Virus record (IMG/VR): IMGVR_UViG_3300042564_002458
Location: 1-64,000 of that record
From: a virus
DNA length: 64,000 nucleotides
Strand: one strand, 5' to 3'
Part shown: piece by piece, positions 11,230 to 54,393 of the stretch
How positions within the stretch are numbered: the first letter of the stretch is position 1
Layout of the letters: each line of letters opens with the position of its first letter
Translations under genes and position numbers: made by a program
The notes under the pieces: model-generated
Seen by the model: the letters and a program-made list of their open reading frames with translations, nothing else
What the model was told of the DNA's origin: nothing
The model's database searches: none

Positions 11230-11286
11230 AGATTTCTTCTTATTATTATGTCTTATTTATGGATAGTATTAAGATAAATACTCTTT

Positions 11287-11721
11287 ATGAGATTAAATGA
11301 AATTGAACAATCAAAGAGTAAGATAGACGATCTTAAGAAATTTATTTCTTGGGCATGTGATCGTTTAGACATTGAAAATATGCCTACTGTCAAGTTTGGT
11401 ACTGATTTATCTGATGTAAAACAAAAAAGAACATTTGGAAGTACTAATAGTGATGGTCAAATATGGGTACATATTGTCAATAGAAACACGGCTGATACAA
11501 TGCGAACATTATGTCATGAATTGATTCATCATAAACAATTTGAAATTGGTACGGCTTATGATGGAATGAATAAAGAACAAACACAATCAATTGAAGACGA
11601 GGCTAATGCTATCGCTGGACGAATGATGAGAGATTATGGTGCTGAACATGAAGAAATTTACGAATCTGTATCAATTTCTAAACATATACGTGATGCCATT
11701 AATGAAATAACAATAAAATAA
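11287..11721 (+). CDS. Zincin-like metallopeptidase with CTS-like leader
   Basis: TLCHELIHHKQ, EDEANA; N-terminus MRLNEIE. Confidence 0.75.
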   Translation: MRLNEIEQSKSKIDDLKKFISWACDRLDIENMPTVKFGTDLSDVKQKRTFGSTNSDGQIWVHIVNRNTADTMRTLCHELIHHKQFEIGTAYDGMNKEQTQSIEDEANAIAGRMMRDYGAEHEEIYESVSISKHIRDAINEITIK

Positions 11722-11733
11722 CTGAGGTAAATC

Positions 11734-13479
11734 ATGACAATTCGTAGAGATGACAACAAATATACAAAATTATCTAAAGCTGAATATGATGGTCAGGCTA
11801 GAAATGGTGAGATTGTTATTGATTTAGATAATCATAGTGTATGGGTTGGTGATGAGAATGGATATTTATTACCTGTAGGTGGAGTAGGTAGTATTGGTGC
11901 TACTGGGCCAAAAGGATTTACTGGAAGTACTGGTGCTACTGGATTTACTGGAAGTACTGGTGCTACTGGAAGTGGTGCTACTGGAGTTACTGGTTCAACT
12001 GGGTTCATTGGATCAACTGGTGCTACTGGATTTACTGGATCAACTGGTGCTACTGGATTTACTGGATCAACAGGCGCAACTGGGTTTGATGGGGCCACTG
12101 GTGCTGGTGCTACTGGCGCTAGTGGTGCAACTGGTCTTCCTGGTGATCGTTTTTCAACTACTAGTAGTAATACACTTACAATATCAACTGGACTTCAGTC
12201 ATTTACTGCCGGAACTGGATTAGGTTATACACCCGCTCAAGATGTAATTATTGCATATGATTTGAGTAATCATATGATAGGTATGGTAGTATCGTATGAT
12301 TATGTAACAGGCGCCATGATAGTAGATGTTAATAACATTGTTGGCGAAGGGTCTTATTCATTATGGACTATTAATCTTAATGGTGCTGTTGGTATTGCTG
12401 GCGCTACTGGGTTTACTGGTGCTACTGGAAGTACTGGTGCTACTGGTTTCACAGGTTCAACTGGTTTCACAGGTTCAACTGGGTTTACCGGCGCTACTGG
12501 TGCTACTGGAAGTACAGGTGCTACTGGAAGTACAGGTGCCACTGGATTTACTGGTTCCACTGGATTTACTGGTTCCACTGGATTTACTGGTTCCACTGGA
12601 TTTACTGGCGCTACTGGAAGTACGGGTGCTACTGGATTTATAGGAAGTACGGGTGCTACTGGATTTACTGGTGCTACTGGATCAACTGGTGCTACTGGAT
12701 TTATAGGAAGTACGGGTGCTACTGGATTTATAGGAAGTACGGGTGCAGGCGCAACTGGTTCCACTGGTCTTACAGGGGCTACTGGTCCAGTCGTATTGGG
12801 TCTATATTATGGATCGTTCTTCTCCGATTCTGATACTACGTTAGTAGATGCCATGAATACTAATAGCACTGCTCCTATAGTGGTGGTGAGTACAGCGGGA
12901 TTCAGATCGGCAGGATATCTTAACATAGAATCAGAACTTATAAGATATACTGGAATTGTAGGTAATACATTTACCGGAATTACTCGTGGAGTATCAAGCA
13001 GTACTAAAGCAGCACATGATCCTGGTGCATCAATTGGATTTGCTCAAGATGGAGCCGCTGGAGTAGCAGAGATAGCGTTGATAGACATAACCCAATTAAG
13101 TAATGGAGTTACTTTAAATGATGCTACTGGACAAGTAACTATAGTAAATGCCGGTACTTATAATATCACTTTCAGTATACAAGCGGCTAACTTTGGAAAT
13201 GCATATGATGACGTAGCAGTTTGGATTGCTGTTGATGGAGTTAACGTACCTCAAACTGCTAGCTATGCCACTATTTTTCTACCACATGCTGGTAAACCTG
13301 GAACCGTTATCATAACCGTGACATTGTATTATGCATTCACTGCTGGTCAAGTATTAACTGTCAAGTGGTACACACGCCTTGGTACCAGTGCGTTAATCTC
13401 AATACCAAAAATTAGCACTACAGTACCAACATCACCAAGTATTATCTTGGCTGTCAGTCAAATAGCATTGGTTCCATAA
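11734..13479 (+). CDS. Collagen-like (G-x-T) fibre protein
   Basis: Two long GATGSTGFT triplet tracts flanking a beta-rich domain; BclA/C1q-like C-terminus. Confidence 0.85.
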
Positions 13480-13549
13480 TTTTTGTCTAGTAATTTAATC
13501 AAGTTTTTATTTTGAGATAGATAAATACAGTATTACTTGGATTATTACA

Positions 13550-15868
13550 ATGTCAAACATGAAGAAATTACTGGATATTATGAATGAAACCACTGTTAGT
13601 GGTTCAATTGCTGCAGGCCCAGCAGTTGGTCTTGGTACTCAACGTAGAGTTCAAGAAGAAGATTCAGATGATGGTACAAAAGCGCCAGATGCTCCCAAAG
13701 CTAAAGAGTTTGGACTGTGGAAAAACAGTGTATTGGCTGGCGCTGAACAACGTGACAAGAAGAAATCTAAGAAAGTGGCAGAATCCAAAAGTGAAGAACG
13801 TAATGAAATGGATACTCCAGCCGTACAGAGCGGATTAAAGAAAATGGCTGCTCGTCATAATAATGAAAACTGGACTAAAGAACAATTGGCAGATTTAGGT
13901 AGACGATTGGCTTCAGTTAAAACTACACGTAAAAATGGATATACTGAATTCAACGGTATTGATAAGGCTATTATACGTAGTAAAAAGGTCAATGAACTTG
14001 ATTGTGGTTCTGGTCAACGTCAATTAAAATTAGCAGAAGAAAACATTTCAGAAGAACAATTGTTAGCCAAAGAATTGGCTCGTAGACTTGATTTGTTTAT
14101 GAAAGGTTTAGATCGTGACCTAGGTAAGAAATCATCAGATCGTGGAATTCAATCAAAAACTGAACCAAGTACTGGTGCTATGAGAGAAGATAATAAAAGT
14201 ATTGGCCCAGATAAAAATGATCCTTTTGAAAAAGGTTGGCGTGCTAGATACGATGATGCTAATCCATATTCTAAAGGTACTAAAGAATATAATGAGTGGC
14301 AACACGGTAAAGATGAACGTGAAGCACAACCAAATCATTATGATGAAAGTGTTGAAGAAAGTACAGAACAACAATTAAGTGTACAACAACTAGCTACTAT
14401 CAATGAGGGACTAGAAGATCCTAAAGATAATCCCTGCTGGAAAGGCTACAAGCCTGTGGGTACAAAGAAGAAGGCAGGCAAGACTGTACCTAATTGTGTT
14501 CCAAAAGAAGGTATGAAGGAACGTCTAAAAGAATTCGCCCCTAGTGATGGAGACGGTGGCGATGACGGCGAATTTGATGAAGACATATTGCGTAAGTTGG
14601 CCTCACAATGGTTTAACGGTGACGAAGATCCCCGAGTAGAACAGTTATTGGCAGCAGCCGGTTGGGAAATTGGACAGGACGAAGGTTATGACGATGAGCC
14701 TGGAGTATTTGTTGTTATGTCTGGAGACGACGATGGTCGATCTTACATCAGTTGGAGCGCAGATGATTTGCGATCCGAGATGTCTGAGGAATCAGTGATT
14801 GGAATTGGATCCAAACTTCCAAAGAGCGATATTGAAACTTTTGGAATACAAAAAGGACGACCATACAAAATCAATCCTCCTCAAGATTGGAAACCAGGCG
14901 ACAGAAAACGTGCTGTTCAACAACTTATTCCCACTCAAGACAAGAAAGATCACATTCGTAGTCGATTGGGTAAACATGTAGATCCTGTATTGCCCGAGCA
15001 AGATGCGGCCCACAGCTATAAAGACACCGGGGGTACTTTTGTGGATCGTGTAGTTGGAGAGATACTGAACTATCAGTCGCTGAACAATGCAAATCCCAAA
15101 TTTGCTGATCTTAGTTCTGCAGTAAAATCAAAACTAACATCTCTTGGAAAAGACAAGGAAAGTCAAATGTATCAGCAAGCACTCAAGCAATCTGCTGAAT
15201 TATCAGGAAAAGAAGATGTCACAGAAGGCGAGTATCAAGGTCAATACTCTTCGAAAAAGACAGCAATTGAATACGCTAAAGAAAAAGTAAAATCATTTCG
15301 TGATTGGCTCGACGGCATTGAAATATGGTCTTTACCCAGTGGTAGATTTGATGTAGTTCATACTAGCAATTCAAACGGTCGCGAACATGTTATAAAGAAT
15401 GGTGGTAAAAAATTAGGTACAATTTATCCAGAAAAACCATCATTTATAAAAAAGAAAGATGTGACAGAAAACAATTGGTCTCACGACCCTTGGAAAGACA
15501 AATATTTTGGGCCAACCGCTGGTGCAATGAAGAAAATATTTAAAATAAAAATTCAAGATGAAGATTCTAATGTTAAAGCTTTTAATGTTAAAGCAGAAAC
15601 AGAACAACAAGCCAAAGATATAATTGAAAAACATGTACCAGGTTCAAATATTCTATCTGTTAAGTTTGTTAAAAATCTAATGGCAGTTGAACAGATTAAA
15701 GAAACCTCTAACTATGGTGATCTAGATGAAGTTGCTCCACCTGGCAAAGAAGATTGGATTAAATCAAACAAAGACAGATTCAAAAAAGAATATGGCGATA
15801 AAAAAGGAACAAATATTTTATACGCAACTGCCTGGGCAGACTACAATAAAAAACATGGGAAGAAATAA
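13550..15868 (+). CDS. Modular late protein (putative polyprotein A)
   Basis: Unrelated short modules separated by VAE/VNE/INE/LKE/VTE/LDE; shares modules with 52344-54233. Confidence 0.75.
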   Translation: MSNMKKLLDIMNETTVSGSIAAGPAVGLGTQRRVQEEDSDDGTKAPDAPKAKEFGLWKNSVLAGAEQRDKKKSKKVAESKSEERNEMDTPAVQSGLKKMAARHNNENWTKEQLADLGRRLASVKTTRKNGYTEFNGIDKAIIRSKKVNELDCGSGQRQLKLAEENISEEQLLAKELARRLDLFMKGLDRDLGKKSSDRGIQSKTEPSTGAMREDNKSIGPDKNDPFEKGWRARYDDANPYSKGTKEYNEWQHGKDEREAQPNHYDESVEESTEQQLSVQQLATINEGLEDPKDNPCWKGYKPVGTKKKAGKTVPNCVPKEGMKERLKEFAPSDGDGGDDGEFDEDILRKLASQWFNGDEDPRVEQLLAAAGWEIGQDEGYDDEPGVFVVMSGDDDGRSYISWSADDLRSEMSEESVIGIGSKLPKSDIETFGIQKGRPYKINPPQDWKPGDRKRAVQQLIPTQDKKDHIRSRLGKHVDPVLPEQDAAHSYKDTGGTFVDRVVGEILNYQSLNNANPKFADLSSAVKSKLTSLGKDKESQMYQQALKQSAELSGKEDVTEGEYQGQYSSKKTAIEYAKEKVKSFRDWLDGIEIWSLPSGRFDVVHTSNSNGREHVIKNGGKKLGTIYPEKPSFIKKKDVTENNWSHDPWKDKYFGPTAGAMKKIFKIKIQDEDSNVKAFNVKAETEQQAKDIIEKHVPGSNILSVKFVKNLMAVEQIKETSNYGDLDEVAPPGKEDWIKSNKDRFKKEYGDKKGTNILYATAWADYNKKHGKK

Positions 15869-16308
15869 TGTTATCTGACGATTTAAAAGTATTACTTGGA
15901 AGTACATTTGTATTATATACAAAAATACATACCTTTCATTTTAATGTTGAAGGGCCAAGTTTCCCACAATATCATAAATTCTTAAAATCTTTCTATGAAG
16001 ATACATATGAAACTATTGATACTATTGGAGAATATATCAGATCATTAGATTCTTATACTCCAGTTAATTTGGCTAGAATGTTAGAGTTAAGCATCATTGA
16101 AGAACAGACTAAAATTCCTCGTGCCGAACTCATGTTTGCTGAACTGCTAACCAATACTGAGCAAATGATTGAGTTAGTTAAGCAGATATTTGATGTTGCC
16201 ACTGAGATGAAAGAACAGGGCATTTCCAATTTCATGGCCGATTTACAAGATTTGTATTCTAAAAAACGTTGGATGATTAGTAGTATATTGAAAAAAGAAA
16301 GAGCATAA
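15868..16308 (+). CDS. dps: Dps/ferritin-like DNA-protecting protein
   Basis: HTFHFNVEGPSFPQYH, DTIGEYIR ferroxidase-site pattern. Confidence 0.88.
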   Translation: MLSDDLKVLLGSTFVLYTKIHTFHFNVEGPSFPQYHKFLKSFYEDTYETIDTIGEYIRSLDSYTPVNLARMLELSIIEEQTKIPRAELMFAELLTNTEQMIELVKQIFDVATEMKEQGISNFMADLQDLYSKKRWMISSILKKERA

Positions 16309-16309
16309 T

Positions 16310-17482
16310 ATGAGATTTTATGAATTTTTAAAAGAAGCGAAACGAACGGGTGGCATTCAAATCATGTCATTAGATCAATTTGCTAATCAAGAAGAACAAA
16401 GTGAACTTGATGAGGCAGATTTATTAGGCGCTCCTACAACTGACTTTTCAGATCCAGAAATGCAAAAGTATCTACGAACAACTGTAGATAAAACAAAAAC
16501 TGCTAGTCAACGTTACAAAATGCCCTACGTACATCGTAGTTCGGCATTGAAATTTTATGATGAATCAGGAAAACAATTTGATCTAGACAAAATGAAAGGC
16601 ATCATCAGTGAGCGTCCAAAACGTTTACTCAAACAGAATGAAAAGATGGAACACAGCAATGGTGAAAAAGAACAATTCTTCAACATTGGTTTTGCTGCTC
16701 TAACTGGATTGGCATTAGATGAAAAGACAAATCAATTTAAGATTGTCAATACTTGCCCAGGTGCTGGTAGTTGTAAAGTAGATTGTTTCGCTCGTGGTGG
16801 TGGTAAGGTTCAGTTTGAAGGTCCATGGATCAGTGATGCTAGAATCTTAACATATTTGTTGAATGATCCAGAAGGATTCAAAAAACAATTGATCAGCGAG
16901 ATTGACAAAGAAAATAAAAAATATGCTAAACAGGGCGCCAAAGTTACTATTCGTTGGCATGATGCTGGTGATTTCTTTAGTCCAGAATATGTAGATTTGG
17001 CTGCTGATGTTGCCAAAACATTCCCAGATACTCAATTCTATGCCTATACTAAAATCGCTAAGGTTGCTCAAGGTGGATTACCAAGTAACTTTCATATTAA
17101 CTGGAGTGAAGGCGCTCATACAAGTCAAGAGAAACAAATCAAATTTGCAGATCCTAAACTTCAAACGACCAAACATAGTAGAATTGTTCCATCTAAGTTG
17201 ACTGATGGCACACCAATCTTCAATGATCTATTGAAGAAAGATGACGAAGGTAAGTTAGAGAAGACTGATGCTGGTGGTTGGATTGTCACTGATATGAACA
17301 AGTTGAAAGATCGTATTGCAAATTTATACAAGATTGATAAAGATACTATTTTGGATTATGATGAGATGATGGCTAAACCAGAAGGTAAAGATAAAAAGTG
17401 GAATGTAATCATTGTTCCTGGACAGGGCGACATCAGTGCCAAGCGTAGTGATGTATTGGGAACATTGTTATTGAAACATTAA
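16310..17482 (+). CDS. Gp88-like Cys-cluster protein with CTS-like leader
   Basis: TCPGAGSCKVDCFA, IRWHDAGDF, FYAYTK; N-terminus MRFYEFLKE. Confidence 0.7.
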   Translation: MRFYEFLKEAKRTGGIQIMSLDQFANQEEQSELDEADLLGAPTTDFSDPEMQKYLRTTVDKTKTASQRYKMPYVHRSSALKFYDESGKQFDLDKMKGIISERPKRLLKQNEKMEHSNGEKEQFFNIGFAALTGLALDEKTNQFKIVNTCPGAGSCKVDCFARGGGKVQFEGPWISDARILTYLLNDPEGFKKQLISEIDKENKKYAKQGAKVTIRWHDAGDFFSPEYVDLAADVAKTFPDTQFYAYTKIAKVAQGGLPSNFHINWSEGAHTSQEKQIKFADPKLQTTKHSRIVPSKLTDGTPIFNDLLKKDDEGKLEKTDAGGWIVTDMNKLKDRIANLYKIDKDTILDYDEMMAKPEGKDKKWNVIIVPGQGDISAKRSDVLGTLLLKH

Positions 17483-17573
17483 AGAACACCTACCATAGGA
17501 CCGGTGTGGGCGGGTGCTGCCCTAGTTAGTGATTCGCTACCACAATACTATAAAGTGACCATTGGAAACTATT

Positions 17574-17750
17574 ATGAAAATCAACGAACTATTATCCGAA
17601 ATGAAATCAGAATCTAACGAAGAAAAAGTTATTGATAATGAGTCAAAATATCTTACTGGTAAAGATAAAGTAGCCAAGATTAGTCCAGTATTGGGCGCCA
17701 AACCAAAAAAACAAAAAGCATTGATGAATAAGTTTTTCGGATCGGATTAA
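17574..17750 (+). CDS. Small basic protein with CTS-like leader
   Basis: MKINELLSE; start moved to ATG 17574. Confidence 0.6.
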   Translation: MKINELLSEMKSESNEEKVIDNESKYLTGKDKVAKISPVLGAKPKKQKALMNKFFGSD

Positions 17751-17752
17751 AT

Positions 17753-18229
17753 ATGGATGATCTTTTAAAAAAATTCAAAATTCAAAAGTTTGAAATGAAT
17801 TTAAATCAAGATTTGGCTGATAATATTTTAGAGTTGAAAAAAACTTTAAAAGGTGTTACATTGAGTAATAAAGGTGGTTGGCAGGGTGTAATAGATAATA
17901 ATACAAATGTTTCATGGGTAGCACAAACAATAACTCAGATTGAAAAATCCACTAATCTTAAAACTTCAAGATTTTGGTTTAACGTAAATGGTCCAAAACA
18001 TTATAATGATTGGCATATTCATCATAGAAATAGATTGGTTTGTGTGGCATATGTGAAAGTTCCAGAAAATTCTGGAGATATTGAATTTAAATCTAACAAC
18101 AACACAATCTTTTCAATAACTCCATATAACGGTCTTGTTTTGATATTTCCAGGAACATTAAATCATCGTGTATTGCCAAATGAATCAATGGACTACAGAA
18201 TAAGTCTATCAACAAATTTATTATCATGA
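17753..18229 (+). CDS. 2OG-Fe(II) oxygenase (phage TIGR02466-like)
   Basis: SNKGGWQ, WFNVN, WHIH, LIFPGTLNHRVLPN, RISLS. Confidence 0.85.
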   Translation: MDDLLKKFKIQKFEMNLNQDLADNILELKKTLKGVTLSNKGGWQGVIDNNTNVSWVAQTITQIEKSTNLKTSRFWFNVNGPKHYNDWHIHHRNRLVCVAYVKVPENSGDIEFKSNNNTIFSITPYNGLVLIFPGTLNHRVLPNESMDYRISLSTNLLS

Positions 18230-18255
18230 AAATTTAAATTAAGAGATAAATTAAA

Positions 18256-18642
18256 ATGAGAGCATATGAATTTCTAATTGAAAATGATATATCACTAAGT
18301 CAATTGTATTCTGACAACTATCCAGATCATGATGAAATTTTTTGGAATTATGTTTCAAATTCAGATTTAAATATCAAATTTGAAGTGGAAAAACTCTCAC
18401 CAATGAAACTAGATATTTTATTGTTGAGCCAATATCGTGTTGAACATATTGATGAAATTGTTGATATGTTAAAAGATGAACAAATTGAAATCATTAATGA
18501 CTATAGATCATCACCAAACTTATCTGATTCAATTATAGTAGTAGCAAACAATAGAATCATAGATGGTAATCATAGAGCATTAGCGGCAGCATTAAATAAT
18601 GTATCAATTAAATATATAGATTTGGATCAAGAGATAAATTAA
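18256..18642 (+). CDS. ParB/Srx-like domain protein with CTS-like leader
   Basis: IIVV...IIDGNHRALAA; N-terminus MRAYEFLIE. Confidence 0.75.
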   Translation: MRAYEFLIENDISLSQLYSDNYPDHDEIFWNYVSNSDLNIKFEVEKLSPMKLDILLLSQYRVEHIDEIVDMLKDEQIEIINDYRSSPNLSDSIIVVANNRIIDGNHRALAAALNNVSIKYIDLDQEIN

Positions 18643-18643
18643 A

Positions 18644-19357
18644 ATGAGAGCCAGTGAATTTCTTATAGAATCCGCTCAGAGTCTCAATAGACTAGACGAT
18701 CCGCAATATTATAAATCGTGTGTTGACAGTTGGACCAAATATTACGGTCACGAAGATCGCGCTCGTTCAGAACTTGATGATTATAAAAATGTTGTTGATG
18801 GTTTGATTCATCGTGGTGGTAAAGTATATCGAATAATATTTGCTGATAGTCCAGAAGAAATTAGAATGAACGATCTTGGCAGTCACTGGACAACTGAATC
18901 ACATAACATTGACGATTATCTAGATAGTCTTTGGTCTAATTATGGCAAAGGTAAAAAGAACTCATATGTTGTAGTAGCCACAGTTGGTCCAAATAATATC
19001 AGCAATGATGTGGTTGATATCTCTGGAAATCCAGAAGAAAAAGAAGTCAACATCAATGATACTAGTCGAGCAACTTATCAAGCATTTGAATACAAGGGCA
19101 AGCAAATAGGTCAAAGAGTTCGCGAGAATATGGATCATAGTAAAGATGATCAAGCCGTATCGCAATTGAAGGCGGCATTATTGGCTCAGAAAAATAAAAT
19201 CAAATCAGTTAAAAACGATAAAGATGATGTATATGATATCATTGATGATATGATGACTAGTATATCCAAATCACATGGTATCAGTGGACAAAAACTACAT
19301 GACATGTGGACATCCAAATATAAAGAAATTCCAGATACTTGGATCATGCATCAGTAA
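18644..19357 (+). CDS. Possible ADP-ribosyltransferase-fold protein with CTS-like leader and appended C-terminal module
   Basis: KVYR...GSHWT...EEKEV resembles the R-S-E layout; N-terminus MRASEFLIE; second module after VRE. Confidence 0.55.
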   Translation: MRASEFLIESAQSLNRLDDPQYYKSCVDSWTKYYGHEDRARSELDDYKNVVDGLIHRGGKVYRIIFADSPEEIRMNDLGSHWTTESHNIDDYLDSLWSNYGKGKKNSYVVVATVGPNNISNDVVDISGNPEEKEVNINDTSRATYQAFEYKGKQIGQRVRENMDHSKDDQAVSQLKAALLAQKNKIKSVKNDKDDVYDIIDDMMTSISKSHGISGQKLHDMWTSKYKEIPDTWIMHQ

Positions 19358-28695: not shown

Positions 28696-29376
28696 ATGAG
28701 TAATGTTTGGGATACACTAATTAAAGTAGAACAATACTTTGAAAGTCAGTTTTATGCTACTGGTAGTATAATTGAAGAACCTGGAATGCATCGTTTTAAT
28801 CAATCAGGTTGGATCAATAAAGTTTGGGCAAGTAGCAGATATCGTAGAGCGCACATTGACGTTGTAGATGCCAGAGACACTAAAGGATTGTGGATGATGC
28901 ATTGTTGTGTTTTCCCACATTTACATAATCCTGCTCCTATCTTTGGATTTGATGTAGTCGCAGGTAAAAATAAAATTACAGGATGTTTTCATGATTTTAG
29001 TCCAGCCGGAGATGCAGAACATCCGCTAATAGATTGGTTTGCAAACGAATCTGGCAAATTAGAATGGAATAAGCCACGTCCATTACCTGAGTGGGCACAA
29101 CGTATATTTACTAAACATATGATTGCCGCTGGTAATGTAAGTGATCCTATAGAATTAGAACAAATATTAGTTATGTCTAGAAAACATCTAGATCATTATC
29201 TGAATGTCATAGATGAAACTAATAATACAGTAACTAGTACCAAAGATCATCAAAATTATTACGCACAAAATCAGAAACAAAACCCACATACACCTAAAGT
29301 AATGGTTAGTTTAGGGTTAAGTGAATCAGATGTAAAAGTTTTTGTACAGGATTGTTTGTTTCCAGAAATACTATAA
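28696..29376 (+). CDS. pcyX: Ferredoxin-dependent bilin reductase, PcyX type
   Basis: RRAHIDVVD, LWMMHCCVFP, PIFGFD, DFSP, RPLPEWAQRIF, QKQNPHT; His69/Asp86 pair; adjacent to heme oxygenase. Confidence 0.9.
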   Translation: MSNVWDTLIKVEQYFESQFYATGSIIEEPGMHRFNQSGWINKVWASSRYRRAHIDVVDARDTKGLWMMHCCVFPHLHNPAPIFGFDVVAGKNKITGCFHDFSPAGDAEHPLIDWFANESGKLEWNKPRPLPEWAQRIFTKHMIAAGNVSDPIELEQILVMSRKHLDHYLNVIDETNNTVTSTKDHQNYYAQNQKQNPHTPKVMVSLGLSESDVKVFVQDCLFPEIL

Positions 29377-29420
29377 TAAAGTATGGAAATTGATCACTAA
29401 AAAATTTTAAAGGTAAAACA

Positions 29421-29978
29421 ATGAGTATTTTAAGAGAACATACAAACGAAAAACATAGAGCGATAGAAAGTCATATATTTGTACAAATGATGATGAATGG
29501 TGAATTGTCTAAAGAACAACATGCCATGTATTTACAACAAATGTATCATGTTTATCGTGATATTGAATATTATGGTGAAATGGTTGGATTATTTCATGAT
29601 ATGCGTTCTATTAAAAGAACAGATGCCATTAAAGAAGATATTCATGAACTTGGATATAAAGTATTAAACTCTGATGAAATTTTTCCTAGTACACAAGCCT
29701 ATCGTGAACATATTTTAAATTTGTACTATGGTAAAAAAGGTGATCAGATTTTAGCTCATATTTATGTAAGACATATGGGTGATTTATATGGTGGTAAACT
29801 TATTGCTAGAAAAGTACCAGGATCAGGAAAGGTCTATCAATTTGAGAATAGTCAAGAATTGATTAAGACATTAGATGCAAAACTAACTATGAATATTCTT
29901 GATGAAGCTTTGTTGGCATTTGATATGAATGGTCATATGTTTGATGATATGTTAAAAAAGGTAAATGAAACAAAATGA
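29421..29978 (+). CDS. hemO: Heme oxygenase
   Basis: LREHTNEKH proximal His; AHIYVRHMGDLYGG signature. Confidence 0.9.
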   Translation: MSILREHTNEKHRAIESHIFVQMMMNGELSKEQHAMYLQQMYHVYRDIEYYGEMVGLFHDMRSIKRTDAIKEDIHELGYKVLNSDEIFPSTQAYREHILNLYYGKKGDQILAHIYVRHMGDLYGGKLIARKVPGSGKVYQFENSQELIKTLDAKLTMNILDEALLAFDMNGHMFDDMLKKVNETK

Positions 29979-30511: not shown

Positions 30512-30938
30512 AACTATTGTACGAGATCAACTATGGGTTATTACTGATGGTGATAGAAAAATTGGTAATGTAGAGGCAGATCAATCGGGTTATTGTATTA
30601 AGATTGGTGGTGATACTAAACATTATGCCAGTACTAAGGCCATTGAACAAACACTTCACGTAATGTTTGATAAACCAGTGACATTAGAATCACATGAAGA
30701 AACTCCATTTGCTCATTGGCCAGTAGAAGGAAAAACGTTTAATAATTTTTATGATATCAAACGTAAGTTACATGTTTATACCAAAAGTGAAAAGAGTTTA
30801 TGTTATCATTGTGCCGGATATTTTAATATCAAAATGAATGATGAATGGGAAACAATATTTTGTCCAAAATATATCTTTGTTCAACGATATCCATATCATG
30901 GTCCATTTAAAACCAAAGATGAGGCTTTATATAGATAA
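30495..30938 (+). CDS. Conserved hypothetical phage protein
   Basis: AAGGA SD; FCPK...YHGPFKT. Confidence 0.65.
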   Translation: MTLIAKTIVRDQLWVITDGDRKIGNVEADQSGYCIKIGGDTKHYASTKAIEQTLHVMFDKPVTLESHEETPFAHWPVEGKTFNNFYDIKRKLHVYTKSEKSLCYHCAGYFNIKMNDEWETIFCPKYIFVQRYPYHGPFKTKDEALYR

Positions 30939-30948
30939 ATAATTAACT

Positions 30949-39412: not shown

Positions 39413-39657
39413 TGTCTAGTGACATAGAACAATTTATTGGAAAAATATATGAGTTTGATGATGGTAGATCAATTAAGATTATTGATGTAACCTTACGAGA
39501 TACTGGCGAAGTTCAATACTATGTTAACTATGAAGTTAAGTATTCTAAAACTAGTATACCAAAAAGAATGTTAATGACTGAAAAAGAATTTATAAGTAAC
39601 TTCAATCATTTATTCTTTGATAAGGGTTTTTAGAAACAACTTTATGATAAATACTAC

Positions 39658-41589: not shown

Positions 41590-43152
41590 TTAGAAAGTTA
41601 AACTCAGTCCGGGCGTTATATAAAATGCACCGCTAACTGACAATGTAGTTGTTGCTGAAACACTATATGGTTGATAGGCAAATAAATTTGCACCACCGTG
41701 AAGACTCTCAGCATTACTATAATCAGTAGACAATCCAGTACTATATAGTGCATCTGAAGTTCCAACATCTAATATTTCTTGTTTAATTTGAGCAGGAGTA
41801 TAACTTGGATATTTTTGAGCCATTTGTACTGCCACTCCGGCTACATTAGGACTTGCCATACTGGTGCCACTAATACTCATTATCTTATAATTAGAATCAA
41901 ATGGATAATCAGTAGTTGCCCCGAAATCATTTACTGTACTAGTAGTACTAACAATATTTGTTCCGGGTGCCCAAATATCTACTCTGGGTCCAGACTCACT
42001 AGATCCGGCTTTACGCTCTGGACTATCATATCCTGTGCTTACATTACCTACACAAATTACGCCGGGTGCGGATGGAGGACTTCCTCCCTGCATGTAATAT
42101 CGCGAACTTACACCATCAGTAAAATAATTATCATAATCTAATCCACCAGGAACATCAATAGTTTGATAATAGTTACCGGCTGCTCCACATAATATTACTC
42201 CAGCACTTAGTAGTTCATCAACATCAACATCAACAGTTCCTACTCTGATTCCGAAGCGTTCACCTGATCCACCAATCATTCCATAATTAGGTTGTTTTGT
42301 TGTTCCTGTCCATGAAGTACCACGATATACTCCACCTTGAATATTAGTAAATGTATTAACATAACTCCAACTCATATTAACTACGGTTGGTCTTTTATAT
42401 CCAGTAACAGGATCGATTGGCTTATTTAAATGCCATCCTTTTATAACATCAAATACATCACTAACTGGTAATCCTTGAGTTCCTCCCCCATTAAGTCCCT
42501 CAACCATGACTGAGTATATTCTAGCATTTTTAGCTCGGCCATATGTTAAACCAGCAGCAATTCCGGTACAGTGTGTTCCGTGACCATCAGTATCAGTATA
42601 AAAAAGATTATCGGCTGGTTGAGTACCTGCCAATCCACTGGCTGTATACCAATTTATTTTTTGAACTCTAGTTACCCCCAATGAATCATTAAATTCTGGA
42701 TGATCACACTGTAGACCACTATCTTGAATAACAAAATCGACACCAGTACCATCTAAAATATAATCATAGTCTAATGTACCACTAGAGCCTGGAGTATTAT
42801 TAGTAGTACTGTTTAGTCTAAATAACCCCCAATTAATTCCCATGTTATTAGCGGGATTTGTACCAGGAGATTTATAATATAATCCAGTTTGAGTAGTACT
42901 AGGCATTATCATAATGTCTGTACGTTGATCTGGTGGAATTTCTACACAATATACTCTGGGATCATTTCGTAATAAGGCAGCCTCTTCATCTGATAATTCA
43001 TATGTACAGGTTCGTAAACTCAAGTCACGATTGTTGACAATTTCTACTCTACGACTTGGTACAAAACCATCCTCACTAGATAGATTTTCAATTTCATTCC
43101 AGAATTGATTATAATCAATATCTTTGTTTAAACTTACAGAATATTCTCTCAT
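41590..43152 (-). CDS. Subtilisin-family S8 serine protease
   Basis: Catalytic triad motifs IQDSG, HGTHC, GTSMASP; NMSW; AAGN. Confidence 0.93.
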   Translation of the reverse strand: MREYSVSLNKDIDYNQFWNEIENLSSEDGFVPSRRVEIVNNRDLSLRTCTYELSDEEAALLRNDPRVYCVEIPPDQRTDIMIMPSTTQTGLYYKSPGTNPANNMGINWGLFRLNSTTNNTPGSSGTLDYDYILDGTGVDFVIQDSGLQCDHPEFNDSLGVTRVQKINWYTASGLAGTQPADNLFYTDTDGHGTHCTGIAAGLTYGRAKNARIYSVMVEGLNGGGTQGLPVSDVFDVIKGWHLNKPIDPVTGYKRPTVVNMSWSYVNTFTNIQGGVYRGTSWTGTTKQPNYGMIGGSGERFGIRVGTVDVDVDELLSAGVILCGAAGNYYQTIDVPGGLDYDNYFTDGVSSRYYMQGGSPPSAPGVICVGNVSTGYDSPERKAGSSESGPRVDIWAPGTNIVSTTSTVNDFGATTDYPFDSNYKIMSISGTSMASPNVAGVAVQMAQKYPSYTPAQIKQEILDVGTSDALYSTGLSTDYSNAESLHGGANLFAYQPYSVSATTTLSVSGAFYITPGLSLTF

Positions 43153-52134: not shown

Positions 52135-52344
52135 TTATTTTTCCAATTTACTAATACGGGGTTTAAATAATTTTTGATCACCTTTAGTAGTTTTTAACAC
52201 TGGTTGATTATGATCATCAGTACTGAATCCAGTTACTTCTGTCTTACGATTCTTGAATTTACCAACTTTAATCTCATCACCAACATTGATAGTAGGTGGT
52301 GTATATGTCTTGGAACTTTCTTGTATGATTTCGTTAATGTTCAT
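52135..52344 (-). CDS. Small KOW/SH3-like protein with CTS-like leader
   Basis: MNINEIIQE; INVGDEIKVGKFKN; TAATG overlap with the upstream gene. Confidence 0.65.
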   Translation of the reverse strand: MNINEIIQESSKTYTPPTINVGDEIKVGKFKNRKTEVTGFSTDDHNQPVLKTTKGDQKLFKPRISKLEK

Positions 52345-54233
52345 TAGCAGTTCCATTTACGTAGTGCTAATGCTTTACGAGTAGGTTTACCATCTTTTTT
52401 CATTGGTCCCTTGACCCCTGACATTCTGGCACAAAAACTCTTACGTCTTTTAGCAGCCTTACTTCCAGGCTTTAATTTACTTGGTTTAGTAGTCACTGCA
52501 GTTTGCAGTTTACTACCAGGATGTTCACGACGATAACTGTTAACACCCTTTTGATTGAGCCCACCAGTCTTGTTCTTACCTGATTTTTTCTGCCATGCAG
52601 CTACTTCATCTAACTTGTTTAATTCTTCTTGTAACCAATTTGATTCGTCTACTTGTGGATCAATACCTTGCTCTTCTTGACTTTTTAAATAATCCCATGA
52701 AGAAACAATCATACCTTCTACATTAGCAATTTTCTCTTGTACCCATTCTGGTAAATTTTCATTGTCATCAATAGTATCTAATAAACCTTCGGCTGCACGT
52801 ATAATAGTATGTAAATTAGTATGAGCCATGCCTGATTCATCATCATACTCAGCGTTATTTTCCATAATTCCAGCTGAACTAACACCTACCGCAACGCTCG
52901 CCAATCCAGTTTTAATGGCATCTGACCAACTCATACCGTGTAGTTTTGCGGCCAGTGTTGGTATTACTGAATTCATTGAACCTTGAAGTATCATGTTAAA
53001 TTGTTGTGGTGACAGACCCATGCTACCAAAATGTTTGATAACTGCACCTGATACTATACTACCAACGATAGTTATAATAACACCTTGTAGATAGGGATTT
53101 TTTGATCCTGCTTTCAACATTGTTAATACTTTGGCACGTTGTTTTCCTGTGGCTTGTGATAATAATTCTTTTGCTTTAGAATTATAATTCTCAACTTTTC
53201 CTGGTTTACTTTGTGACAATTGAGTTTTGTAGAAGTCAGTAATGACACTAGTGACATTTGATTTAGATTCACTACTGCCTTCCGCCACACCTTCTTTTGG
53301 CACACAGTTAGGAACTTTCTTACCGTTTTTCTTCTTCATGCCAACTTGCTTATAGTTATCCCAACATGGGTCTGAGTCTTCCGACACCGCTTGCTCTGCC
53401 AAATCACTATCATCATAATATTGTAGCGCATCCGATACACGATTAATAAGTTCTCTTTCAAGTTTTTGCATGAGAGCATCCGATGCTTTGATTTTTAACT
53501 TTTTAAGAGCGTCCAAAATGTCGTCATCTATATCCCAATGAACATTATTAGATAAAAGTATTCTCTCTACTGCGCTATACACTTGTTCAAACTTAGAGTT
53601 GGCAGATGGTTTCGCAACATCAGCAGCATTTTTAGTGATATTGTTCATCATGCTACCGTATGCTGTATCAGCACGTTGATCGGCTGCGGCACCTTTGTAT
53701 CTAGCACCTTTAACTATCTTTCCCATCATTGAATCAAATGATGTGTCGCCAGTTGTCTCCGCCACACCTTGCTGACCTTTAAGTGCTTGTAATAACGCTC
53801 TAGCAACTACACGATCTTTTTCTTGTTCTTCATCAGGCAATTGAGCATACCCAATGTTCATCAACTTTTCTCGTTGTTGAAGTTTTGCTTCTAATTTTCC
53901 AGCCGCTTTTAACTTTTCTGTATCATCAAATTGATCAGGATTTTGTACAAATGCTTTAGCCGTTACATTCCAACCTTTATGAATAGCATCACTGATTGCT
54001 TCAATATCAGTAATACCTTTATCAATCATTTGTTTAGCATATGCAGCTGATTTTAAATTTGCTTGCCATCCAAATGTATTACCAGGAGAACTACGACCAT
54101 AATGATATGCATTATCTAATGCTTCGTCACTGATAGTGGCCAGTTGTTGTACGCTTAATTGTTTTTGATCACCTTCCGCCACACCTTGAGCGTTCAAGAT
54201 AGTATTTTCTGAGAGAATTTGAGTTATTTTCAT
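52344..54233 (-). CDS. Modular late protein (putative polyprotein B)
   Basis: Modules joined by QGVAEG/QGVAET/QAVSED/EGVAEG linkers; basic C-terminal RKSFCARM module. Confidence 0.8.
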   Translation of the reverse strand: MKITQILSENTILNAQGVAEGDQKQLSVQQLATISDEALDNAYHYGRSSPGNTFGWQANLKSAAYAKQMIDKGITDIEAISDAIHKGWNVTAKAFVQNPDQFDDTEKLKAAGKLEAKLQQREKLMNIGYAQLPDEEQEKDRVVARALLQALKGQQGVAETTGDTSFDSMMGKIVKGARYKGAAADQRADTAYGSMMNNITKNAADVAKPSANSKFEQVYSAVERILLSNNVHWDIDDDILDALKKLKIKASDALMQKLERELINRVSDALQYYDDSDLAEQAVSEDSDPCWDNYKQVGMKKKNGKKVPNCVPKEGVAEGSSESKSNVTSVITDFYKTQLSQSKPGKVENYNSKAKELLSQATGKQRAKVLTMLKAGSKNPYLQGVIITIVGSIVSGAVIKHFGSMGLSPQQFNMILQGSMNSVIPTLAAKLHGMSWSDAIKTGLASVAVGVSSAGIMENNAEYDDESGMAHTNLHTIIRAAEGLLDTIDDNENLPEWVQEKIANVEGMIVSSWDYLKSQEEQGIDPQVDESNWLQEELNKLDEVAAWQKKSGKNKTGGLNQKGVNSYRREHPGSKLQTAVTTKPSKLKPGSKAAKRRKSFCARMSGVKGPMKKDGKPTRKALALRKWNC

Positions 54234-54334
54234 GTTATGTAACCAATATTACTTGTATTTATCAATAACAAATTATATTATAAATTCAAAATGTTACTTT
54301 ATTTTTATATCATATTCAATCTGATAAATAAATG

Positions 54335-54393
54335 TTACAGATGCCGATTGGGTCTGTAAATTTAACTTGCTTAATTAAGGAGATAATATCATG
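54335..54393 (+). promoter_or_regulatory. ROSE-like RNA thermometer in the dnaK 5' UTR
   Basis: 5' hairpin TTACAGA/TCTGTAA; CTTGCTT (54366-72) pairs with SD AAGGAG (54377-82) with a bulged G. Confidence 0.65.

Follow-up and report, generated by a model that had tools for sequence, protein, structure and literature searches.

ORF A of a lake-water jumbo phage: a modular array of mini-domains and a possible head-packaged polyprotein

ORF A, a gene of 772 codons from a lake-water jumbo myovirus, encodes a modular array in which mini-domains are strung together as beads on a string. The gene lies in a stretch of 64,000 nucleotides (hereafter the window) taken from the viral record IMGVR_UViG_3300042564_002458, and the phage of this record is a 121-kb fragment of the Rak2/GAP32 type, with a CheckV completeness of 34%. 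With a rough probability of 0.55, ORF A is read here as a late-made polyprotein that would be packaged in the phage head and cut at its linkers into small cargo proteins ejected with the DNA.

Modular architecture of ORF A

ORF A occupies a single 2319-nt open frame, in which homology delimits the following leader and modules, the latter 16-89 aa in size.

13550..15868, plus strand: ORF A, leader and about 12 modules by homology
13550..13588, plus strand: leader, aa 1-13, MSNMKKLLDIMNE; homologue N-termini fall in few leader classes
13589..13783, plus strand: module M1, aa 14-78, ending KKVAE; low-confidence or disordered, pLDDT about 29
13784..13996, plus strand: module M2, aa 79-149, ending KKVNE; alignments tend to begin or stop at 76/89 and 144-155
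13997..14188, plus strand: module M3, aa 150-213, ending AMRE; helical
14189..14359, plus strand: module M4, aa 214-270, ending SVEE; weak likeness to ribosome modulation factor
14360..14407, plus strand: module M5, aa 271-286, ending QLSVQQLATINE; 16-aa remnant
14408..14521, plus strand: module M6, aa 287-324, with the pattern PCW..YK.VG.KKK.GK.VPNCVPKEG, then the decayed linker GGT ATG AAG GAA
14522..14788, plus strand: module M7, aa 325-413, ending EMSE; acidic mini-domain, net charge -19
14789..15013, plus strand: module M8, aa 414-488; basic, low-confidence (pLDDT about 30), in 66 of 241 homologues
15014..15226, plus strand: module M9, aa 489-559, ending EDVTE; helical
15227..15469, plus strand: module M10 (aa 560-628) and the spacer KPSFIKKKDVTE (aa 629-640); pLDDT 89-96
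15470..15691, plus strand: module M11, aa 641-714, ending MAVE; small alpha/beta domain, pLDDT about 91, in 11 homologues
15692..15865, plus strand: module M12, aa 715-772; helical C-terminal module, pLDDT 82-90, in 14 homologues

The initial annotation had described ORF A as about a dozen blocks, and had anticipated both pieces that recur in different combinations across phages and independent mini-domains with disordered linkers. Homology bears out the number of blocks, and their recombination is evident in the 241 mapped homologues, which show 49 module orders; 27 of the 89 multi-module homologues are non-collinear with ORF A. None of the listed homologues aligns with ORF A from end to end, apart from P0001, which is a shorter call of ORF A's own protein. 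For the near-length hits, of which 120 of 186 were listed, the best local alignment covers at most 37% of ORF A once P0001 is left out. The AlphaFold model (pTM 0.26) likewise departs from a single-domain fold, showing separate confident beads (residues 341-412, 561-630, 660-715, and 730-770) joined by low-confidence linkers (pLDDT < 50). Modules M1 and M8 are predicted from the model pLDDT to be disordered rather than folded domains.

Pfam returned no family for the whole of ORF A, which lacks the DUF6321 domain of its sister gene ORF B, and nothing usable for 11 single modules at E <= 1. The domains known from polyvalent proteins (zincin-like peptidase, ART, methylase/helicase, and others) were absent from these whole-protein and per-module searches. 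A Foldseek search of the whole model against the PDB gave nothing at E <= 0.001, with top rows at an rmsd of ~15 A, and tblastn against 50,697 isolated-phage records found three cyanophage records only, which cover at most 11% of ORF A.

Module M1 is carried by 27 proteins and stands first in every listed architecture that contains it; M2 is present in 26 homologues, sometimes in last place. M4 weakly resembles ribosome modulation factor (RMF), short of family membership. Six of the 17 M4-carrying homologues match RMF (PF04957) on this module with 15.6-25.4 bits, all below the gathering cut-off of 27.9, and a search of the PDB with the M4 profile returned RMF chains alone (E 0.35), while ORF A's own M4 has no Pfam match at E <= 1. 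M6 matches phrog_4359 and phrog_9737 and is also present in gp266 of Synechococcus phage B23. The most widespread module is M7, which is found in 110 of the 241 homologues, is matched by 459 representative proteins at E <= 0.001 (representatives of clusters at 50% identity), and is modeled with pLDDT > 87. Comparison of the M7 model with 48,161 chains by VIA-align gave a best Z of 4.6 and none of 5 or above, and the ESM Atlas gave no usable feature match for M7, its structure rows having a TM of ~0.5 or lower and no consistent family. Alignments stop at residue 629, the end of M10, and a weak DUF2188 match falls on the stretch of relative P0022 that corresponds to M10.

It is extremely improbable that this arrangement is an artefact, whether an assembly chimera or several small genes misread as one ORF. 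One mild point for an artefact is the start codon, which is ambiguous between the methionines at residues M1, M4, and M11, with homologue starts matching equivalents of all three. Against it stand the single open frame, the hundreds of independent homologues with the same architecture, and linker words that are mutually in frame (21/22; see below). In addition, contigs that carry ORF A come from every one of the 24 lake-water runs listed, and no run has less than 73% of its sampled words. In four of these runs, identical overlapping pieces add up to most of the gene, though none of the listed pieces spans the whole of it, and the contigs from these four runs have no joints inside ORF A.

The sister gene ORF B and the shared upstream box

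A second gene of the window, on the opposite strand, shares modules and an upstream box with ORF A.

52344..54233, minus strand: ORF B, 629 aa; leader MKITQILSE, three GVAE linkers, DUF6321 C-terminus
53278..53291, minus strand: canonical linker word GGTGTGGCGGAAGG in ORF B, peptide EGVAEGS
54172..54185, minus strand: canonical linker word GGTGTGGCGGAAGG in ORF B, peptide QGVAEGD
13520..13527, plus strand: GATAAATA box, 22 nt before the ORF A ATG; resembles the T4 late promoter
54256..54263, minus strand: GATAAATA box, 22 nt before the ORF B ATG

DUF6321 (PF19846) covers residues 552-627 of ORF B with 71.4 bits against a cut-off of 28.5, and no paper on this family was found in the literature searched. 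The proposal that ORFs A and B belong to the same system is upheld by two modules in common and by relative P0007, which fuses ORF A 4-286 (88% identity) and ORF B 16-319 (97% identity) in one protein. M6 and ORF B 288-318 are identical at 22 of 31 residues, and M5 is what remains of a larger module, of which ORF B and P0007 have the intact form. The sequence at 14501 had been said to be mirrored in ORF B, and both members of the pair were located: CCAAAAGAAGGTATGAAGGAA at 14501-14521 on the plus strand of ORF A and its counterpart CCAAAAGAAGGTGTGGCGGAA at 53280-53300 on the minus strand of ORF B.

The claim that both genes start exactly 22 nt after GATAAATA was verified at the positions listed above. 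The late promoter of T4 is TATAAATA; the GATAAATA box resembles it and is a candidate late box. A relative, L017, likewise has GATAAATA, 25 nt ahead of its polyprotein gene. The box is not enriched in the window, with eight matches against 7.7 +/- 3.0 expected. Coding sequence makes up 93% of the window, yet all eight copies are intergenic (two overlap a stop codon) and each points at the gene downstream. TATAAATA itself is under expectation in the window (7 vs 13). None of the 24 listed runs that carry ORF A is an RNA run.

Module boundaries and hydrophobic-x-Glu motifs

The linker motifs named in the initial annotation are all present in ORF A: KKVAE (aa 74-78), KKVNE (145-149), KLAE (160-163), AMRE (210-213), SVEE (267-270), TINE (283-286), KEGMKE (319-324), RLKE (325-328), VLPEQDAA (480-487), EDVTEG (555-560, nt 15212), KDVTEN (636-641, nt 15455), and DLDE (724-727). 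The position of KKVAE is nt 13769 rather than 13771. As bounds of blocks, most of these motifs match boundaries seen by homology, but KLAE, RLKE, and DLDE do not, and the boundaries at EMSE (410-413), IYPE (625-628), and MAVE (711-714) were absent from the list. BLAST alignment ends pile up at residues 286, 324, 413, 483-489, 560, and 629 of ORF A, on or beside the Glu of hydrophobic-x-Glu motifs.

ORF A contains 24 [VILMFY]-x-E sites, whereas 2000 shuffles gave 15.0 +/- 3.2 and 0.5% of them reach 24; the 12 sites of ORF B against 9.5 expected in shuffles are not a significant excess. Homology is the stronger test of the boundaries than the motif count. Of 1335 alignment-end peaks, 267 fall on the Glu of hydrophobic-x-E and 121 one residue later, compared with ~20-40 at most other offsets, and the logo built from 553 boundary contexts reads G-V-A-E-G.

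The linker peptide and its DNA word

The linker in relatives is Q-G-V-A-E-G, which is almost always spelled as one DNA word, GGTGTGGCGGAAGG(C/T), with GGTGTGGCGGAAGGY as its 15-nt form. Across 369 family proteins (210,984 aa), 256 copies of GVAEG were counted where 0.64 would be expected, and 558 copies of the strict linker motif, G[VILM][ASTV]E[GASE], where 20.7 would be. In loci chosen without regard to the linker, 15 of 20 G[VM]AE[GA] sites are spelled GGTGTGGCGGAAG, with unrelated flanks and at 34 to 53% GC. The word runs against the codon bias of the window's genome, in which GTG accounts for 10.7% of the Val codons and GCG for 8.0% of the Ala codons. The exact word has 102 matches in 80 viral loci, 86 of them in the G-V-A-E-G frame, inside open frames 150 codons or longer, vs 6 and 0 in the other frames. 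Same-strand spacings between linker words are multiples of 3 in 21 of 22 cases.

The linkers of ORF A had been called degenerate, and this proved correct, as ORF A has no strict linker site and no canonical 14-nt word, vs two of each in ORF B. They are decayed forms shifted towards A/T, with the V/M/I-x-E core retained at 9-10 of about 11 boundaries. The ESVEES and EDVTEG of ORF A (loose ends 14364 and 15207) are exactly where contigs from co-occurring relatives have the canonical word, and in run X24 the relative's contig runs on past 15207 as CAA GGT GTG GCG GAA GGT. Two other functions were considered for the linker and rejected: internal translation starts, given that no start codon follows the linkers inspected in ORF B, and 2A-like ribosome skipping, given a conserved peptide of just five residues.

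The T4 prohead protease gp21 cuts after Glu in L/I-x-E (PMC9026906, in part). Since gp21 needs just L/I-x-E, the conserved Gly at P4 and P1' and the conserved nucleotides of the linker want a second explanation, which could also be the linker's sole function. ORF A would then be an uncleaved beads-on-a-string protein that acts whole, in the virion or the cytoplasm, and the linker would be a flexible spacer and a DNA recombination joint or scar. This alternative is rather unlikely. The nucleotide word is conserved far past the need of the peptide, so that the linker could be accounted for by a role in the DNA alone, and the linkers of ORF A have decayed, yet the ORF is intact and is carried by contigs of all the lake-water runs listed. 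Polyvalent proteins are also multi-domain chains, some of which are transferred whole (PMC5512222, in part). However, the core is kept in ORF A where the DNA word has decayed, which argues for selection on the peptide. Moreover, the linker's invariant Glu corresponds to the P1 residue of S77 proteases, and the same cargo exists as single genes in which the hydrophobic-x-E of the leader immediately precedes the shared sequence. Cleavage at the linkers is the preferred reading. The nucleotide conservation of a coding linker, against codon bias and in genomes of 34-53% GC, is worth follow-up by itself.

Leaders, neighboring genes, and candidate proteases

Read from M4, the leader of ORF A is MKKLLDIMNE, 10 residues of the form M-K-x-hydrophobic...hydrophobic-M-x-E, and it resembles the T4 capsid-targeting sequence; T4 IPII and IPIII both begin MKTYQEFIAE. 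In T4, a 10-residue leader suffices for head targeting, and the roles of its residues have been described; an Asp at its position 10 prevents processing (PMC9026906, in part). Leaders of the same kind are common to the homologues. The strict leader, M[KR]xx[EQDN][FIL][FILV]xE, is found at 7 of 218 ORF starts in the genome of this phage vs 0 of 835 internal Met positions. The following ORFs of the window bear leaders or are candidates for processing.

11287..11721, plus strand: HExxH metallopeptidase-like ORF, 144 aa, leader-like start MRLNEIEQ; two genes upstream of ORF A
16310..19357, plus strand: cluster of four leader-bearing ORFs downstream of ORF A
16310-17482, plus strand: GP88-domain ORF, start MRFYEFLKE
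17574-17750, plus strand: leader-bearing ORF, start MKINELLSE
18256-18642, plus strand: leader-bearing ORF, start MRAYEFLIE
18644-19357, plus strand: leader-bearing ORF, start MRASEFLIE
41590-43152: subtilase, alternative candidate processing enzyme

Cargo of this kind occurs both in single genes and in fusions. P0172 consists of a leader and M7, P0240 of a leader, M6, and DUF6321, and a homologue of the GP88 ORF is fused behind M7 in P0111. P0247 (1639 aa) joins homologues of the peptidase ORF 11287, M7, and the amidoligase ORF 48936, and its homology to the single peptidase and amidoligase genes starts right after their leaders. Modules of some relatives also include ParB-like (ParB_N), sigma-70 region 4 (Sigma70_r4), cytidylyltransferase, GP88, amidoligase, and HExxH peptidase modules.

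Cleavage by another enzyme, either the HExxH metallopeptidase or the subtilase and possibly in the host after ejection, is distinctly unlikely. The peptidase ORF has its leader-like start and its place near ORF A in its favor, and its homologue in P0247 is an internal module directly before M7; autoproteolytic release by zincin-like peptidase domains has been proposed for polyvalent proteins (Iyer et al., 2017; PMC5512222, in part). However, the match of the metallopeptidase to Peptidase_M78 is weak and below the Pfam cut-off, and most family polyproteins are without a peptidase module. A cut after Glu with a hydrophobic residue two positions upstream is, moreover, the documented signature of T4-type head proteases (PMC9026906, in part).

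Processing by a T4-type prohead protease, the favored route, is consistent with the gene content of several relatives. Peptidase_S77 was detected in 5 of 10 related viral records, which are mostly fragments, and in one related contig a T4-type prohead protease lies about 5 kb from a polyprotein gene. In L017, the genes for portal, protease, scaffold, and major capsid protein follow in this order, and ~3 kb further on are a leader-bearing kinase and a polyprotein of 587 aa with six strict linkers. The window's own record, at 34% completeness, holds no S77 protease and no head genes, and ORF A is not beside head genes in its genome. Among five records tested for Gp23, S77 and Gp23 occur together in G001, G006, and G007, and both are absent from G008 and G009, in which no T4 portal or HK97 capsid was detected either. 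G008 is rated 99% complete and has four in-frame linker words. Either G008 is less complete than estimated or its linker can function in the absence of an S77 protease, and the linker arrays of G008 may speak for another enzyme.

Proposed packaging and exchange of cargo

In the favored reading, ORF A would be transcribed from the T4-late-type box, and the leader would direct the entire chain to the core of the prohead. Peptidase_S77, the prohead protease of T4 type, would then cut at the hydrophobic-x-Glu linkers, yielding about a dozen mini-proteins of 4-10 kDa that would be retained in the head. Entering the host with the DNA, these may act as early take-over or counter-defence factors, for which the RMF-like module and the very acidic module are candidates. 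A further role is proposed for the DNA word, that of a joint for recombination in frame, through which modules may be swapped, duplicated, or split off as leader-bearing single genes.

A broader proposal is more tentative: GGTGTGGCGGAAGGY may be the joint of an in-frame cassette system that draws on a pool of mini-protein cargo modules, which jumbo phages of this group would have in common and in which every module would have the word on both sides, with the encoded GVAE|G as the release site of the head protease. Arrays could be built up, rearranged, and divided by recombination at the word, always with the reading frame preserved. One short element would thereby be both a DNA shuffling site and a protein release site for an arsenal of injected effectors. 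No description of linker-delimited arrays was found in the open-access article texts searched (including PMC5512222 and PMC7824862), and as far as this search extends, such a dual-role linker element has not been described for phages.

If the proposal is true, a single targeting signal loads many small effectors into the capsid, and effectors are exchanged between genes and phages without frame errors. It would also reveal a large unannotated pool of candidate take-over and anti-defence mini-proteins, in units delimited by a searchable marker, and would carry the T4 model of capsid targeting and gp21 processing over to uncultivated jumbo phages from lakes. A possible practical use is as a blueprint from nature for loading phage heads with cargo made up of several proteins.

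Relation to known systems

A close parallel is with the T4 internal proteins IPI, IPII, and IPIII and with Alt, which share a short N-terminal leader (M-K/R-x-(Y)-x-E-F-I/L-x-E), an expected cut after the Glu of hydrophobic-x-E, and diverse, fast-evolving cargo of the take-over or anti-defence type. The phage lineage described here also has a T4-type module of portal, protease, scaffold, and capsid genes. However, the T4 proteins are one cargo each and are cut once, at the N-terminus (Alt is cut a second time, at the C-terminus). In the present family, a dozen cargos or even more can follow a single leader, and the site recurs between the cargos, fixed both as a peptide (GVAEG) and in its DNA spelling.

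In the giant myoviruses phiKZ, 201phi2-1, and SPN3US, too, a related prohead protease cuts many head proteins, the ejection and inner-body proteins, at several S/A-x-E sites before their delivery into the cell (PMC9026906, PMC5694885, PMC7411985, and PMC10052503, each in part). These substrates, in contrast, are large proteins with propeptides, for which no arrays of shuffled mini-modules and no linker word are reported.

The polyvalent proteins of phages and conjugative elements combine 2-15 unrelated effector domains per polypeptide in highly mosaic architectures, and the proposal is that they accompany the DNA and are set free by proteolysis (PMC5512222, in part). ORF A likewise has multiple unrelated domains and a mosaic architecture (about 12 modules, 49 orders). 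Unlike polyvalent proteins, it contains none of their known domains, its modules are much smaller, and one universal motif delimits them. In PMC5512222, the words 'linker', 'cyanophage', and 'marine' are absent, and 'prohead protease' occurs just in a reference title.

As a joint for exchange, the linker can be compared with demarcation motifs for module swapping, such as VENN in CdiA toxins and the glycine-rich motifs in T-even gp38 adhesins. In each case a short conserved coding motif beside variable modules gives the homology for in-frame exchange. VENN and the gp38 motifs mark one variable tip or a few loops, whereas copies of the linker run the length of the chain and, in addition, resemble a protease site. 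The polyproteins of RNA viruses (picorna-like viruses and potyvirids) are similarly one translation product with repeated protease sites between units. However, a dsDNA phage need not economise on initiation sites, and the family described here carries accessory cargo in no fixed order rather than a replication and capsid set.

Modular architecture of ORFs A and B

The putative cargo polyprotein and its sister are encoded as follows:

ORF A: 13550-15868, plus strand, 772 aa
ORF B ("polyprotein B" of the initial annotation): 52344-54233, minus strand, 629 aa, with a DUF6321 C-terminus

Protein searches with A returned 186 homologues of 424-1351 aa, 244 of 30-423 aa, and 14 of 1352-3860 aa, and the best 120 of the 186 and best 120 of the 244 were examined. 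Among the best 120 of the 186, end-to-end alignment as one conserved protein, which the initial annotation had set against its own reading, is absent except for P0001, a shorter call of the same protein that is 100% identical to A. In every other case the best local alignment spans no more than 37% of A, even where local identity is 70-95%. A is a mosaic rather than a single conserved protein, and a map built from all BLAST segments places twelve modules behind an N-terminal leader.

Modules of A derived from BLAST segments (residues of A)
M1: 14-78
M2: 79-149
M3: 150-213
M4: 214-270
M5: 271-286
M6: 287-324
M7: 325-413
M8: 414-488
M9: 489-559
M10: 560-628
M11: 641-714
M12: 715-772

As the initial annotation anticipated, pieces of A recur in different combinations across phages: the 241 mapped homologues display 49 distinct module orders. 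Of the 89 that carry at least two modules, 27 are arranged non-collinearly with A, as in P0012 (M1-M6-M11-M4-M3-M12) and P0020 (M8-M9-M7). Having been found with A as the query, each of the 241 holds at least one module by construction, which does not apply to the variety of orders. All 27 proteins that contain M1 have it in first place. The most frequent module, in 110 proteins, is M7, and a profile built on proteins carrying it matches 459 representative proteins at E ≤ 0.001 (287 at E ≤ 1e-30) among 1.84 billion, at widely varying positions within proteins of 104-1601 aa. A and B have two short blocks in common, PCW..YK.VG.KKK.GK.VPNCVPKEG (A 294-324 and B 288-318, 22/31 identical, E 9e-12) and QLSVQQLATI (A 266-286 and B 16-36, 12/21 identical), which are adjacent in A and separated by 250 residues in B. 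The homologue P0007 fuses A 4-286 (88% identity) to B 16-319 (97% identity).

The AlphaFold2 model of A, built on a 34-row alignment with the block alignment checked, has a mean pLDDT of 58 and a pTM of 0.26. It contains confident beads at 341-412, 561-630, 660-715, and 730-770 (block means 82-96), moderate confidence at 240-260 and 300-327, and pLDDT below 50 at 1-90, 265-294, 330-338, 413-495, 548-559, 632-658, and 719-725. The expectation of independent mini-domains with disordered linkers is thus borne out for the beads and the low-pLDDT stretches between them, but not for M1 and M8, which have no confident fold. Modelled alone, M7 reaches pLDDT 77 and pTM 0.62, and structure comparison gave it no convincing neighbour (best Z 4.6).

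Where translation of A starts is ambiguous (window 13550-13582), as the N-termini of homologues and that of the ESM Atlas record fall at the equivalents of Met 1, Met 4, or Met 11; counted from Met 4, the leader has 10 residues, as in T4. A collagen-repeat (G-x-T triplet) fibre-like protein of 581 aa lies directly 5′ of A (11734-13479).

The linker peptide

Alignment ends in A cluster at residues 286, 324, 413, 483-489, 560, and 629, and alignment starts at 294, 326, 411/419, 562, and 715, positions that sit on TINE, GMKE, EMSE, VLPE..AAH, DVTEG, IYPEK, and MAVE. All twelve motifs that the initial annotation listed in A were found, to within 2 nt. Across the family, 1335 alignment-end peaks were placed relative to hydrophobic-x-Glu motifs: 267 coincide with the Glu and 121 lie one residue past it, compared with about 20-40 at most other offsets. 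Numbered around the putative cut after Glu (P1), 553 distinct contexts give P4 Gly 0.26, P3 Val 0.33 (then Leu, Ala, Met, Ile), P2 Ala 0.32, P1 Glu, and P1′ Gly 0.29; P5 shows an excess of Gln. For 369 family proteins (210,984 aa), composition predicts 0.64 copies of GVAEG and 20.7 of the strict motif G[VILM][ASTV]E[GASE], whereas 256 and 558 are observed; 251 proteins hold at least one copy and 76 hold three or more. The window's own genome has four strict motifs in 36,697 residues, two of them in B and none in A. Since A nevertheless carries 24 hydrophobic-x-Glu sites, where shuffled sequences have 15.0 ± 3.2, its description as bearing degenerate versions of the same linker is accurate.

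The linker as a DNA word

The linker is also conserved in its nucleotide spelling. In loci fetched with P0016, picked by peptide patterns excluding the linker and ranging from 34 to 53% GC, together with the window, 15 of 20 distinct G[VM]AE[GA] sites are spelled GGTGTGGCGGAAG between unrelated flanks. All three GVAE sites of B read GGT GTG GCG GA(A/G), against the codon use of the genome, where only 10.7% of Val codons are GTG and 8.0% of Ala codons are GCG. The 14-nt word has exactly two copies in the 121-kb record, both in B, and no further ones even with two mismatches. Scanning IMG/VR for GGTGTGGCGGAAGGY returned at least 120 stretches; in the 80 loci analysed, 86 of 102 matches lie in the G-V-A-E-G frame of an open frame of at least 150 codons (other frames, 6 and 0), and same-strand spacings are divisible by three in 21 of 22 cases. 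With one ascertaining copy per ORF left out, 21 of 33 further GVAEG peptides in these ORFs use the exact word, and the remaining 12 depart from it by one to three synonymous changes.

The uniform word cannot be put down to selection on the peptide, which could be spelled in 512 ways. We infer that recombination at the word keeps it uniform, or that the word is under selection for such recombination, by which modules would be exchanged in frame; alternatively, it may serve an mRNA-level role. In the boldest of the readings, the linker may be a dual-use cassette joint.

The linkers of A look like decayed copies of this word, with mostly G or C changed to A: GGT ATG AAG GAA after M6, GAT GTC ACA GAA GGC after M9, and AAA GTG GCA GAA, AGT GTT GAA GAA, and GAG ATG TCT GAG at other boundaries. 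Direct positional support, at one contig per run, comes from co-occurring relatives in lake-water metagenomes. At 14364, relatives in runs X24 and X16 read ..GGTGTGGCGGAAGGA.. just before the match to A starts, and at 15207 a relative in X24 goes on ..CAAGGTGTGGCGGAAGGT.. in place of A's EDVTEG. As these contigs carry the word where A has decayed linkers, calling A an eroded array is fair. The paired 21-nt words of A and B were likewise recovered, at 14501-14521 (+) and 53280-53300 (-).

Leaders, head protease, and cargo

T4 gp21 cleaves after Glu in L/I-x-E, and the capsid-targeting sequence is the first 10 residues of IPIII, residues 4 and 7 being important for targeting and 8 and 10 for processing (review, PMC9026906). 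T4 IPII and IPIII both begin MKTYQEFIAE. In the window's own genome, M[KR]xx[EQDN][FIL][FILV]xE starts 7 of 218 ORFs (MRAYEFLIE, MRFYEFLKE, MRASEFLIE, MRAKEFIIE, MKINELLSE, MKITQILSE, and MKIHELLYE) as opposed to 0 of 835 internal Met positions, and these ORFs are grouped around A and B. The family has 173 distinct N-termini, which group into a few such leader classes, among them A's own MS[DN][IM]KK[LI]LD..xE.

In single-module proteins, the leader runs straight into a module that follows GVAEG elsewhere, such as M7 in P0172 and M6 with DUF6321 in P0240 and P0212. P0247 (1639 aa) joins homologues of three separate items of the phage's genome, an HExxH peptidase ORF (11287-11721), M7, and a 696-aa amidoligase ORF (48936-51026), its similarity to the two single genes starting at their residue 8, right behind the leaders; P0111 fuses a homologue of the GP88-domain ORF at 16310 behind M7. 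Peptidase_S77, the gp21-type prohead protease, is present in 2/5 and 3/5 related viral records, most of these records being fragments. L017, a related contig of 160.6 kb, carries in succession the portal, a 72-aa ORF, an acidic protein, the S77 protease, a scaffold-like protein, and the major head protein. A homing-endonuclease-like ORF and a 360-aa ORF follow, then a T7 gp0.7-like kinase with a leader and, after it, a polyprotein of 587 aa. This polyprotein has six strict linkers, compared with two strict motifs in the other 17 ORFs of the locus. A collagen-repeat protein of 1328 aa lies a few genes 3′ of this polyprotein.

The linker is accordingly read here as a candidate head-protease site. 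Beyond the observed modularity, linker, leaders, and presence and position of the protease in relatives, the leader would target the putative polyprotein to the head, where it would be cut at the linkers, and the released modules would be retained and later ejected.

Several observations count against this head-protease reading. A's neighbours are metabolic genes, and a gp21-type cut does not need the extra conservation of the linker at P4, P1′, and the nucleotide level. No Peptidase_S77 and no head or tail core genes were found in the phage's own record (120,921 bp, of which the window is the first 64 kb; CheckV completeness 34%), which holds many auxiliary genes. Neither the related record G008, rated 99% complete and with four in-frame words, nor G009 yielded S77, Gp23, T4 portal, or HK97 capsid. 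These absences may reflect a head module missing from the record, since in five records tested for both, S77 and Gp23 are both present in three and both absent in two.

No module of A matches a Pfam family. Ribosome modulation factor (RMF) is the only Pfam match on M4 in 6 of 17 carriers, all below cut-off, and RMF chains are the sole PDB matches to the M4 profile (E 0.35), a lead towards a possible resemblance, not family membership. The 89 residues of M7 sum to a net charge of -19. Elsewhere in the family, modules include Sigma70_r4, ParB_N, cytidylyltransferase, GP88, DUF2188, DUF5661, DUF5872, DUF6321, amidoligase, and HExxH peptidase. Leader-bearing homologues of the T7 gp0.7-like kinase (phrog_15752) occur at 94160-95352 (-) of the phage's record (G000) and 9305-9952 of L017, which suggests that a host shut-off kinase with a capsid-targeting-like leader may be delivered with the DNA. 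The cargo mix would fit proteins delivered early for host take-over.

The closest known systems are T4 internal proteins with a targeting leader, the multiply cleaved ejection proteins of phiKZ-like phages, and the polyvalent proteins of Iyer et al. (2017). The openly accessible articles searched, in their main texts, gave no account of shuffled mini-module chains with one universal peptide and DNA linker. In the cultured T4-like cyanophage Synechococcus phage B23, gp266 (L012 5569-6699, 376 aa), between the two terminase genes, chains DUF5661, the PCW module (M6 of A), and DUF6321. This protein seems to repeat A's architecture on a smaller scale and, if so, would provide a practical test system.

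Putative late boxes and genome context

The GATAAATA boxes, which resemble a T4 late promoter, were confirmed for A and B, each exactly 22 nt 5′ of its ATG, and the box also lies 25 nt upstream of the L017 polyprotein gene. The ATG of a Dps/ferritin-like gene (15868-16308) shares one base with the stop codon of A, and the leader-bearing GP88-domain gene (16310) begins 2 nt past its end; the three genes look translationally coupled behind A's box. In several genes, an (N)ATAAATA box ends 4-7 nt before the ATG (window 11273-11286, 30934-30948, and 39646-39657; L017 upstream of 9305 and 11809), with no space for a Shine-Dalgarno site. If this box is a T4-type late promoter, their mRNAs would be (nearly) leaderless.

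The genome has a GC content of ~33%, and contigs of all 24 listed lake-water metagenome runs contain the stretch, none with less than 73% of its sampled words. The phage's family-B DNA polymerase is nearest to those of jumbo myoviruses.

Relatives of the DNA polymerase (identity)
Sinorhizobium phage Phosso (469 kb): 49%
Xanthomonas phage XaC1: 45%
Pectobacterium phage CBB and Cronobacter phage GAP32: 44%

Auxiliary genes encode DnaK, ClpX, two ClpP homologues, ClpS, Hsp20, peptide deformylase, and IscU and IscA-type proteins, as well as CsgG, CsgF, a porin, a PstS-type phosphate-binding protein, a CHASE2 cyclase, RtcB, heme oxygenase, and bilin reductase. The near-complete proteostasis set and IscU/IscA-type Fe-S assembly genes lie at window 54391-56253 and G000 68076-74642 and neighbours. 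An envelope gene cluster (L002, G000 about 85.1-100.2 kb) holds OmpA-family, porin, PstS-like phosphate-binding, curlin-repeat, CsgG, CsgF, FecR-domain, and CHASE2-adenylate/guanylate cyclase genes. The polymerase groups with Rak2/GAP32-type jumbo phages, and the ferredoxin-dependent bilin reductase adjoins heme oxygenase (window 28696-29978), a pair that stands side by side in cyanophages as well.
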